From contig OX597819.1 of the NCBI GenBank assembly GCA_951406725.2, positions 65,348,001 through 65,412,000 of the forward strand: a DNA stretch of 64,000 bases, in the 5' to 3' direction. The translations under genes were made by a program, and so were the position numbers. Source of the stretch: Octopus vulgaris. Lineage: Eukaryota. Shown piece by piece: positions 14,887-62,394 of the stretch (position 1 is the stretch's first letter; each line of letters starts with the position of its first letter). The notes beneath the pieces are model-generated. The model worked only from the letters and a program-made list of their open reading frames with translations. It searched no databases and was not told the DNA's origin.

Positions 14887-15184
14887 TAATTGATTCCCTG
14901 TCTCGCCAATATGTAGTTCCTCGCAATTCGGGCATTTAATGCAGCAGATCAAATTTCTGCGAGTTTATAGTGTGTATGTGCGTGCATACACACACACACA
15001 CATACATACATACATACATACATACATACATACATACATACATACATACATACATACACATAGGCGTACGTACGTATATACATGCATACACGCATGCATG
15101 CATACCGGCGTGCATACATACACACATACATACGTACATATATATAACGAACTATCTGTTACTTTCTCAGATGCAGCACGGGTT

Positions 15185-15235
15185 TTTGTCAGTGAACAGG
15201 TTGCGGTCTTAAATCGACGAAAATATTTTGACAAA
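15185..15235 (+). ncRNA. Type I hammerhead with G3:C8 covariant core (GUGAACA)
   Basis: tttgtca-GTGAACA-g-gttg...cgac-GAAA-atat-TT-tgacaaa: 7 bp stem I, 4 bp stem II, AATATT palindromic stem III. Confidence 0.65.
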
Positions 15236-15414
15236 TTAAACTTAAATGTTGAAGTGAATCGAACGGCTTTTGTGTGTTTCTTAAATGGCTTACAAACACC
15301 TTTCCACGCTGCAATTGTTTTCGTTTCAGCACACTATCTCAGAACAAATCACTTGCTATGCAAGTACATCTCCGCAGTTCATATCTGCATTTGAGAAAAT
15401 CTATCCATTTTTTG

Positions 15415-16070
15415 TTCTAATGGATCTACCAGTATGCATGTACTGACACGTTCCACATCTGCTACCATTACACTTGTGTACAGAGGAAAACTTATCCTGT
15501 TTGTTCATATTGAATTTTGACTTTGCTAATAGTTTCTTTAGGTTATATGGTTGCCTTTTGTTTAAGACAAGTGTTTCACTAGTTATGTGTTTTTAATTTT
15601 TCACTTTGTTACGTGATTGGCAAATTTCTTTTGATGATGTTAAAAATGCTTTAGTAATGCGGATTGTATTTGATGCAGAAATGTGATGCAGATTGTGCTT
15701 GATGCAGAAATATGATGCGGATTCCGGTGCTGGGGAAATGGTATTCTGCTCCATTGATGGCTTCGGGGTTCGTTTTTCTCGTGTTGCCCTAAGTTGCTCT
15801 ATAGGTATCTGTTTTGCTCGTTATCTGCTATTTTCTATTAGTAGGAGAGAATAATTTTGCTTGAGCAGGAATCTTTAGAGTTCTATAAGTTGGATGTTCC
15901 CAGTATTTAGATCATCTACTATGGTACCAATTTTCAGGTCTGAGCAGTACGGGGTGTGGCAGTTTGTGTGTGTTGGGTGACATGATTTGAAATTTAGTTA
16001 CTTATGTGTATCTGTGCTTTTGTAATAAATATCATTTGTGATGGTGGTGTTGGTTTTAATACCACTACAT
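15415..16070 (-). pseudogene. Neptune-type Penelope-like element, RT thumb and linker fragment
   Basis: Manual translation with stops: NDIYYKSTDTHK*LNFKSCHP...IGTIV...FLLKQNY...AKQIPIEQLR; KRQPYNLKKLLAKSKF...KCNGSRCGTC. Confidence 0.85.
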
Positions 16071-16496
16071 GGCCTTGCTTTTGTTCCCCCCTACATGGCC
16101 TTGCTTTTGCTTTTTGAGCCAAAAAAATTAAATTAAAAAAATTAAATTAAATTCATTACCATTTTGTCAAGAAATGGTAATTGTGCGTTGCTCATTTCCC
16201 TTGTGAATCTCAGACTAGGATGACCGATTCTCTATGTTTCTCGACCCAATATTGTATGGCAGGAATTCCCAAATTATGGGGATATAAGGTTGTAACATCA
16301 AAACTAACAGTGAAAACCTGGAAGAATTCAGAAGCCTCTACAACGATCTGTCTCTGTCTATTTAAATGTTTGTAGATCTATATATCTGCCAGCCTGTCCA
16401 TCTCTCTAACATACAAACATGTAATTATTTATCTTTCTAGGTGACTCTCAACATATCGATTTGTAAAAACGTATATTGCGTGTGTCTGCATGTATA

Positions 16497-59590: not shown

Positions 59591-59906
59591 GACAAAATCA
59601 ACCTATATATATATGTATATCAATAATAAAAGGGTAAAATCAATTAATTATTAATTAATTTTACCAAATAGTGTTCAGTATGTAAGAGGACCATTTAAGG
59701 TATATTTAAAGTATTACGTTATGTAATTAGGGTTCAGTAAAATAATTTACTTTACTACATACTGAAACTTTTAGAAATAGCAGCCAAAAAGTTTTTTTAG
59801 CTATTTTTTTACTATAAGACAAATCTCCCAGACAGTGTATACTCAAAAATAATTCACGCAGATATGGAGGGAAAAATAACAAAATATCACATGTACATAA
59901 GATCAT

Positions 59907-59968
59907 TTGAGAACGAACGTTCCTGGATTAGTTGAATTTAAAAATCAACATTTCCTTCGTCAGCTCAA
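59907..59968 (-). ncRNA. Hammerhead, mirror copy with GAAA>GGAA mutation
   Basis: ttgag-CTGACGA-agga...tcca-GGAA-cgttcg-TT-ctcaa. Confidence 0.6.
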
Positions 59969-60534
59969 CATTTCTTAGATTTGGATTAGAGAGCACTAAA
60001 AATCGAACATACCCGTCTGATATGAGTAATCTCAGATAAACCATCTTCAACCGCCAGTACCAACCAATTCAAAAAGTACGAATGAGACATTGCATTCCTC
60101 CCGCTTCCATCCACGTGAGTTATAGAGTAAACAAATTCTTACAGTGAGAACCATAGTAAAAACAGTGAGAGAGAATTATATTATCAATAATAAAAGGGTA
60201 AAATCAATTAATTATTAATTAATTTTACCAAGTAGTGTTCAGTATGTGGTAAAGTAAATTATTTTACTGAACCCTAATTATATAACGTAATATTTTAAAT
60301 ATTCCTTAAATGATCCTCTTACATACTGAACACTACTTGGTAAAATTAATTAATAATTAATTGATTTTACTACGGTTCTCACTGGAAGAATTTGTTTAGC
60401 GGGAGGAATGCAATGCCTCATTCGCACTTTTTGAATTGGTTGGTACTGGCGGTTGAAGATGGTTTGTCTGAGATTACTCATATCAGACGGGTATGTTCGA
60501 TTTTTAGTGCTCTCTAATCCAAATCTAAGAAATG

Positions 60535-60596
60535 TTGAGCTGACGAAGGAAATGTTGATTTTTAAATTCAACTAATCCAGAAACGTACGTTCTCAA
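60535..60596 (+). ncRNA. Type I hammerhead ribozyme, conserved boxes intact
   Basis: ttgag-CTGACGA(60540-46)-a-gga..gttga/tcaac..tcc-a-GAAA(60580-83)-cgtacg-TT-ctcaa; ACGTACGT palindrome; A-A at base of stem II. Confidence 0.75.
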
Positions 60597-60789
60597 ATGA
60601 TCTTATGTACATGTGATATGTTGTTATTTTTCCCTCCATATCTGCGTGAATTATTTTTGAGTATACACTGTCTGGGAGATTTGTCTTATTGTAAAAGAAA
60701 TAGCTAAAAACACTTTCTGGCTGCTATTTCTAAAAGTTTCAGTATGTGATAAAGTAAATTATTTTTCTGAACCCTAATTATATAACGTA

Positions 60790-60854
<65 letters not shown>

Positions 60855-62394
60855 CACATATAAGTCACATTATTCATCACAACTGTGCTTCGAAAGGCAA
60901 CATGAAAATCTGAGTAACAGTTTTGTGATAATTTTGTAGCTTTAATAAAAGTACATATATTTTTATTTTGTGCGTGCGTGTGTGTGTGTGTGTGTGTGTA
61001 TAACATTATTCATTAATTTTCAGTGCATTTACTTGTATGTAAGGACGCGTGTATATAACATATGTATGCATGTCAACATGTTTGTGAATTGGTTCGTTTC
61101 CAAAATTAAGATAAACTCCTATCACGTATTAAGCTATCGGCATGAAAGCAAAACTTCCTTCACTGTATATGCTATTGTATGAAATAATGCTACAAATTTT
61201 TCTGAAGGTGTATGCATTTACTCTATGTGTATTTGTGAGCACTAGTATGTCTCTGTATATATCATTCGGTTGTGAAAATCATTTATGTACGTGTGTATAT
61301 TGTGTTGTATGCGCGTGTTTATGTATGTGTATAATTGTAAAATCAATTGTCTCCTTGAAAGAATCTCTACAATTATAAATTCAAATTGGCGATTTATATT
61401 TCCAGCAATCATCCTATGCTCGAATTCTTTATGGATTGTAGATATGAACACAGTCATTGTTGGGCACTTAAGAATAACAATCTGGCAATTACGCGGTTCC
61501 ATACTGGATCGAAACACCACTGCTCCAATAAATTGAACATCTGTTTTCTCCTATAACATCGACATTTTTATATGGAAATTGTACTACACAAATTTGGTAC
61601 ATCTACATTATTCAATGCAGGTTTAAATTGAAAATGCTGTGCGCTCTCGTTTTGTGCGCGGTTACTACGCGAAGTAATGACCGCATATATCGGTGTCTTC
61701 TAAGGATTGGCAAAATTGCTGAAAATAATTTGTGTTTTAAAAGTCCCGCTAACTTTCATGTATACGAATATTCATTATTTAAATTATAAGCTATGCTGTT
61801 ACGTCTCCAAAGGAAAGCTGGAGGGAGTCAGAATTTAAGTTATCTTATGTCTTGAAAATGTGTTTTATTCAACGATACAAAATACATATAAAGAGACCTT
61901 TGTACTTCTATATATGCACAACGTGTACTCTCCATGATAAACGCTGATAGCTCATCTATTAAAATAATTCTCATATATTATCGTTTTCTAAAAGTGCTAG
62001 AGATCATATTCTCGTTAAACGTCGAAATATTTATCGGTATGTGAACAATCATATATAACCGTCCACATTCACAAATATGTTTAAAGGGACATTAGTTTAA
62101 ATTCATCTATCGGCTATTAATACATTGAAATCAAATTGCAATACAGATACTTTATATATTATCGCCAAATAGAGTTACCAAATATTAGATAGAACCGAAT
62201 ATTAAATACATGTACTTCGGAGTTATTATCTCCTCTTCTGCGACAGAGAACGGAAAGGCAGATGCTGCAAAATTAACCCAGAGACACGAATAATATTCCC
62301 CTCATAGTCGAATAACTGTTGCCGCTATTCAGCTGCTCACTGTGTCATACCTGACCACACCGTCTTTTACACACGCAAACATCTATATGTATTA

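Follow-up and report, generated by a model that had tools for sequence, protein, structure and literature searches.

What is the 1.2-kb fold-back at the far end of a 64,000-nt stretch of Octopus vulgaris DNA (contig OX597819.1; the whole stretch is called the window below), and how did its two arms arise? An earlier reading of the letters alone had taken it for cDNA of a circular or multimeric self-cleaving RNA of ~560 nt, copied past one full round with a template switch, and had proposed a large-monomer family of retrozymes. We followed this up in the genome, in the published descriptions of similar elements, and by RNA structure prediction.

Two outward-facing arms of one 564-nt unit

The fold-back comprises two copies of one unit, numbered c1-c564 by counting downwards from 60247. 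Its features in window coordinates are as follows.

59603-59617, unstranded: short degenerate TA run, left end of the insertion
59613-60247, minus: left arm, 1.1 units (c1 to c564, then c1-71); 3' end at site B, 88-nt tail present
59613-59700, minus: 88-nt tail between the fixed ends A (c547) and B (c71); contains an AU-rich hairpin with a covarying base
59633-59766, minus: conserved structured domain surrounding the two putative RT start sites; the internal inverted repeat of the unit forms its outer stem
59907-59968, minus: damaged left-arm type I hammerhead (GAAA>GGAA; loop III GUAC>GUUC)
60238-60247, unstranded: inversion junction, 10-nt microhomology between the 5'-truncated arm ends
60238-60803, plus: right arm, 1.1 units (c482 to c564, then c1-547); 3' end at site A, tail absent
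60535-60596, plus: type I hammerhead, motif intact; predicted cut after GUU, at 60591
60535-60539 with 60592-60596, plus: hammerhead stem I (5 bp); CUGACGA at 60540-60546, GAAA at 60580-60583, GUU at 60589-60591
60796-60862, unstranded: (TA)n target microsatellite, right end of the insertion

Most of the sequence-only reading of this anatomy held when measured. It had given each arm ~1.1 monomers, the left in minus orientation (59618 again at 60182) and the right in plus orientation (60241 again at 60741); we find 59618-59683 repeated at 60182-60247 (98% identity, period 564) and 60238-60302 repeated at 60738-60802 (94%, period 500). The right arm, said to lack 23 nt and ~41 nt, has one extra base and two deletions, of 42 nt following 60364-60370, where there is a microhomology of 6 nt, and of 23 nt following ~60397. 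Both arms point outward, and the 10 nt in which they overlap, 60238-60247, form one of the two halves of an inverted repeat inside the unit, where the flip had been placed. Both ends enter TA-rich sequence, also as described, and the reported lack of an ORF is borne out by a longest stop-free frame of 66 aa in the unit read circularly and 73 aa in the locus. The arms are sister sequences, 96.1% identical to each other and at most 93.2% identical to any outside copy, and the locus has no two consecutive complete hammerheads on unit spacing. Elsewhere in the window, 14887-16320 (minus) is a decayed PLE RT/endonuclease remnant whose main segment shows 31-41% identity to proteins of the genome's intact PLEs, with a best E of 2.5e-48.

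The hammerhead motif

The plus hammerhead has an unpaired A, a long stem II, a 2-bp stem III and a palindromic GUAC loop. It keeps both boxes and the minus one has GGAA for GAAA, as first noticed; G occurs at this position in only 2 of 83 arms, and we propose that the change is a later mutation private to the window copy. The claim of one ribozyme per strand did not survive: the second ribozyme is only the inverted copy of the first, and the antisense strand has no conserved core, a loose motif occurring at unrelated positions in 5 of 31 monomers.

Both boxes and the NUH are retained in 63 of the 82 arms that span the hammerhead, and its core columns are 98% conserved, against 93% elsewhere in the unit. 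Among 18 chosen sequences, 99% of cells are paired in the hammerhead, two stem I pairs are altered on both sides, and C3-G8 is replaced by U3-G8 or U3-A8 in a sister family (family 2, below); the U3-A8 variant is known from schistosome PLEs (PMC4209133). Loop III alternates between the palindromes GUAC and GGCC. It is self-complementary in 43 of 74 family-1 and 43 of 45 family-2 hammerheads, which suggests that cleavage may proceed as a dimer in some subfamilies; 31 of the 74 in family 1 have no such loop, and some hammerheads without a palindrome have a 3-bp stem III instead. An Rfam scan of the locus returned no hammerhead family match, only repeat-driven miRNA noise, and the ribozyme is therefore called from its motif and from covariation. 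The isolated hammerhead folds no better than shuffled sequences (z -0.9 to -2.1).

A dispersed family and its sister

Searches for family 1 in the window's own genome, which spans 2.8 Gb in 227 contigs, yielded 2807, 2998 and 3966 candidates at first look, 40 of them scored per search. We mapped 80 loci on a circular reference, in a sample biased to long, well-matching copies; two entries, L252 and L253, are one locus counted twice. This pair, 13 kb apart (G000:C16), consists of an identical insertion with identical flanks, either a segmental duplication or an assembly duplicate. The sister family, with a unit of 554-556 nt that is 73% identical to family 1 over aligned columns, gave 1697 candidates, and 47 of its loci were mapped. 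In both families the unit closes on itself, and its GC content is 0.31 and 0.33. A genome search with the monomer thus turned up thousands of candidates; the copies are dispersed and tandem dimers are rare.

Near-identical sequence is also present in sequencing runs labelled with five organisms. Contigs of three runs, which we guess to be RNA, cover 26-27 of 30 unit bins, a kind of coverage that cannot show transcription, ends or circularity. There is further diversity within the genome. L127 (1393-2285) represents a family-1 subfamily with a CUGAUGA core, a stem II ~20 nt longer, a period of ~585 nt and two complete hammerheads. Relatives of the unit at 71-78% identity (L070 5537-5849 and 6654-6816, L078 6370-6674, L251 1903-2531) suggest additional families, and the ends of those at L070 and L078 are structured as in the main ones. 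Our literature search found no description of this octopus hammerhead family; a Repbase or Dfam consensus may exist under 'Penelope' or 'unknown'.

Insertion anatomy

Arms have two preferred 3' ends, A (c547) and B (c71 of the next unit), 88 nt apart, and 5' ends that vary from arm to arm. Ends at A or B account for 77 of 115 family-1 arms and 55 of 66 family-2 arms, and a TA run adjoins 119 of 132 such ends. Inverted pairs face outward: the main tally contains 53 divergent and no convergent pairs, and a later set added six outward ones. Of these 59 pairs, 23 could be scored for the composition of their ends, since in the other 36 one end or both lie away from A and B; 22 of the 23 combine one A with one B (p=3e-6 against 0.5). 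Junctions mostly show 0-5 nt of overlap or a few inserted bases, the 10 nt of the window locus being the longest of 34. Contig depth in one large run, which is not copy number, rises steeply toward site A and collapses beyond it, which fits 5' truncation. A minor third class of 3' ends lies at c35-45, inside the AU-rich tail hairpin (L005, L015, L089, L108, L132, L137, L233). Preferred 5' truncation points in the family-1 unit are c140-142, c162-165 and c217-220, possibly RT stalls at RNA helices.

5' truncation, a partial tandem, an inverted partner, a one-sided tail and a microsatellite target make up the PLE insertion signature, and both families carry it. Published PLE insertions are 5' truncated, with a partial tandem, an inverted partner and a tail that is often at one end only (PMC8557442). 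With Anolis PLE protein in vitro, both target strands were cut and extended, and reverse transcription began internally, at two sites that mark off the tail (PMC11167929). Two-site priming on both strands by a PLE dimer would account for the inverted repeats and the one-sided tail together. Setting retrozyme against PLE, as had been done at the outset, poses a false alternative: the retrozyme-like features stand, and the element inserts like a PLE, with A/B ends, (TA)n and outward inverted pairs.

Relation to the PLEs of the genome

Ordinary pseudo-LTR copies had been expected always to be attached to a PLE ORF; at none of the 127 mapped loci (80 family-1, 47 family-2) is such an ORF continuous with an arm, which upholds the earlier view that this is something else. 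Frames in the units reach at most 66 and 84 aa in the two families and gave no tblastn match to PLE proteins. PLE fragments lie in the flanks of 8 of the 127 loci, none continuous with the arm; at L077/L139, analysed in detail, the 3' end of that PLE and a TA run lie between fragment and arm. The 55 single arms have no common non-unit upstream sequence. Several GIY-YIG loci with homology to the unit (L057/L077, L038/L078, L070, L072) were considered as the partner and rejected as separate insertions beside a PLE, that at L077 lying in the PLE's TA tail.

The genome contains many intact PLEs with a 781-aa RT + GIY-YIG ORF and pseudo-LTRs that are 99-100% identical; they terminate in (TA)n, with a tail of ~35 nt present or absent. 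They have a CxxC linker, by which we take them to be Neptune-like. Relaxed blastn, local alignment and profile HMMs detected no homology between the unit and PLE ends across 48 PLE-containing loci, with 150 of 6136 GIY-YIG candidates scored. One young autonomous family (L061-L068, L075, L076) has the 781-aa frame intact, and several of its copies have an overlapping upstream frame of up to 479 aa without a Pfam match, a second ORF being unusual for a PLE. Its pseudo-LTR carries a U3-A8-like minimal hammerhead motif, and L076 has one inverted end tailed and the other untailed. Penelope-like families appear in a recent annotation of octopus repeats, which, in the sections considered here, never mentions ribozymes (PMC13282606).

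Structure of the whole unit

Around the A and B sites, 6 of 26 pairs are altered on both sides and 96.9% of cells are paired (21 chosen sequences). Folded as circles, sense units reach lower z scores (-4.4 to -8.5, six units) than antisense units (-1.6 to -3.5, four) or controls (-2.3 to +0.5, five). The consensus fold of 18 sequences scores -187, against -113 ± 5 for shuffled columns, and 41 of its 182 pairs, long-range helices included, are altered on both sides; most of this covariation comes from the one split between the two families, so the events are not independent. The RNA is under selection, with structural constraint that covers the whole unit and not only its ends. A self-paired fold is no proof of circularity.

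Circular or linear template

Among family-1 arms, 40 of 133 reach one unit and none reaches two, the longest being 1.6 units; among family-2 arms, 11 of 66 reach one unit and one reaches 2.7. Complete hammerheads on unit spacing, two or more together, occur at L127 (1 of 79 family-1 loci) and at L199 and L209 (2 of 47 family-2 loci). The description as tandem monomers therefore fails for family 1 as a rule and is right only in rare cases, namely these hammerhead pairs. The three are candidate source copies. L199 (3962-5478; G000:C2, about 149445961-149447477) is the family-2 array of 2.7 units; it has three U3-A8 hammerheads, and its units have 11 rare variants in common. L093 and L259 were rejected as multi-hammerhead copies, their hammerheads not being unit-spaced.

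Where an arm passes the same positions twice, the passes differ at 147 of 4081 positions, with no recurrent fixed differences away from the ends; at L108 they are identical at 178 of 178. Identity between passes exceeds the median identity to outside copies in 20 of 23 arms. Being closer to each other than to outside copies and free of recurrent fixed differences, both passes come from a single template unit, which a circular template would explain simply. A circle has been proposed for PLEs (PMC4209133), and circular RNA has been shown for coral, mussel and axolotl retrozymes (PMC7229834).

The arms of L127, L209 and L199 all start at c217-220, and a common start of this kind in two-hammerhead arms is what a linear RNA whose 5' end is defined would give. 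A first pass of the start-site test, in family 1 only, found no excess at c217-220. Among 29 independent arms from a set gathered with no bias for 5' extent, one stops there and five stop at c140-142.

Origin of the fold-back

In our view the locus is probably a single insertion of a scattered hammerhead element of 564 nt that encodes no protein, likely made from circular RNA by the RT/endonuclease of an autonomous PLE. In this mechanism a rare source copy with at least two hammerheads would be transcribed, and the transcript would cleave itself, probably through a double hammerhead, and release a 564-nt monomer; stem I would hold the ends of this monomer, which would then be ligated. A PLE protein dimer would bind the structured A/B domain and both strands of the (TA)n target would be cut, each target 3' end priming one cDNA, one at A and one at B. 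Each cDNA would run a variable distance around the circle, 1.1 turns at the window locus, before the two truncated ends join via microhomology; the right-arm deletions would be RT slips or later losses. Most likely, then, a PLE RT made the two arms of the fold-back as separate target-primed cDNAs on ribozyme RNA that was circular (or multimeric), and the truncated ends of these cDNAs were joined. Two published results count against this explanation: hammerhead mutants of the Anolis PLE inserted unaffected (PMC11167929), and 8 of 9 Xenopus retrozyme dimers showed no cleavage in vitro (10.64898/2026.07.22.740005).

A linear template is unlikely, though the chance is appreciable. The element would then be a non-autonomous miniature PLE (pseudo-LTR c217-547, 234-nt body, pseudo-LTR, tail) transcribed from ~c218 and reverse transcribed from A/B, copies of more than one unit arising from a multimeric transcript or from jumps between terminal repeats, and the hammerhead just trimming RNA ends. 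The shared start of the three two-hammerhead arms speaks for it, as do the unprocessed RNA that is the dominant substrate of the Anolis PLE (PMC11167929) and the near-identical pseudo-LTRs (99-100%) of the autonomous PLEs of this genome. However, the unbiased set places a single arm at c217-220 and five at c140-142, and preferred stops also fall at other points; a lineage kept up by linear two-unit RNA alone should show inherited differences from pass to pass, and none recur; and structural constraint falls on the whole unit. We think it distinctly improbable that the copies are truncated pseudo-LTR fragments of an unsampled autonomous PLE, the 564-nt period marking an internally deleted derivative with no independent life. 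All the insertion features are those of an ordinary PLE (PMC8557442), opposite-strand hammerhead pairs 100-700 bp apart have been noted for truncated PLEs (PMC4209133), and the 40 candidates scored per search come from thousands; yet 0 of 127 loci run into an ORF, the 55 single arms share nothing upstream beyond the unit, and the closed unit and its long-range helices are common to two families that are ~73% identical.

Hardly credible, finally, is a single cDNA folded back at the internal inverted repeat, or an inverted duplication of DNA after insertion, even though the window junction falls exactly in that repeat and the arms are sisters (96.1% against 93.2%). The right arm includes ~480 nt for which the left arm could provide no template once the flip had occurred, so one folding cDNA cannot yield the locus; at L009 and L018 neither arm contains the other; junction positions vary, with overlaps mostly of 0-5 nt; and the A+B pairing contradicts it. 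Arms that end at fixed 3' sites across the family fit two priming events better. Of the original proposal, a non-coding type I hammerhead family of ~560 nt copied past one round stands, and the single cDNA with a template switch falls.

Comparison with known systems

Metazoan non-LTR retrozymes (PMC7229834; 10.64898/2026.07.22.740005) resemble the octopus families in being non-coding, with GC of 31-33% and one type I hammerhead per unit, and in head-to-tail repeats, a strongly self-paired predicted circle and co-occurrence with PLEs. The octopus units, at 554-585 nt, are larger than the ~170-400 nt circles studied in invertebrate retrozymes; the size is nevertheless not exceptional, as had been supposed, retrozyme consensus lengths of 51-972 bp having been reported (10.64898/2026.07.22.740005). 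Unlike retrozymes, the octopus copies are almost never full dimers (at most 1.6 units in family 1 and 2.7 in family 2) and are dispersed in (TA)n; their fixed internal 3' ends, tail and inverted arms have no retrozyme counterpart in the parts of the published descriptions compared. The hammerhead, too, is of PLE type rather than retrozyme type, with a long stem II, an unpaired base before G10.1 and the U3-A8 variant.

EN+ PLEs (PMC8557442, PMC11167929) have in common with the octopus families 5' truncation, partial tandems, an inverted 5'-truncated partner, a tail at one end, microsatellite targets and a hammerhead upstream of the 3' end. The octopus element differs from them in having no ORF, a tail of 88 nt rather than 30-40 nt, and no detectable homology to the PLEs sampled in the genome. 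Chlamys MRC1-like elements are likewise non-autonomous PLE derivatives with pseudo-LTRs and head-to-tail copies; they generally resemble their autonomous family at the 3' end, and their N-terminal-endonuclease clade is described, in the portions considered here, as without canonical hammerheads (PMC8557442).

Small size, a rod-like fold and a hammerhead also characterize viroid-like circles, which have ribozymes on both polarities. The octopus unit, in contrast, has its ribozyme on one polarity, the second being the inverted genomic copy.

Retrozyme features found are thus a hammerhead per unit, non-coding sequence of low GC with no evident LTR, PBS or PPT, a monomer predicted to be self-paired and, only rarely, tandem hammerheads; the telomerase-like RT + GIY-YIG ORF of an autonomous PLE is absent from the unit and from the 127 loci. 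The element inserts like a PLE and, by its sequence, matches a non-LTR retrozyme. Our verdict is a PLE-mobilised non-LTR retrozyme, dispersed rather than arrayed, for which cleavage and circularity are predicted.

Significance

A derivation of animal retrozymes from PLEs has already been argued (10.64898/2026.07.22.740005), and hammerhead pairs on opposite strands have been on record since 2014; this kind of element is thus already known. As far as our searches show, what is new is the pair of families, the dispersed form of 1-2.7 units, the covarying domain at the putative RT start sites and the counted A+B pairing. Metazoan retrozymes have been reviewed, in the sections considered here, as having no motif that points to a mobilising retrotransposon (PMC7761336), and the link to PLEs has so far consisted of co-occurrence and pseudo-LTR similarity (PMC7229834; 10.64898/2026.07.22.740005). 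The octopus family itself bears the PLE insertion signature, together with a covarying RNA domain at the putative start sites. More speculatively, and in our judgement with somewhat less than an even chance of being right, a long-lived lineage of viroid-like RNA circles of ~560 nt may parasitise PLEs through conserved RNA structure and not sequence homology, its insertions recording a dimer that primes on both target strands at two fixed sites of the same RNA. A 564-nt substrate, intact PLE ORFs in the same genome and a published in vitro PLE assay make both circle-rolling reverse transcription and paired two-site priming testable.
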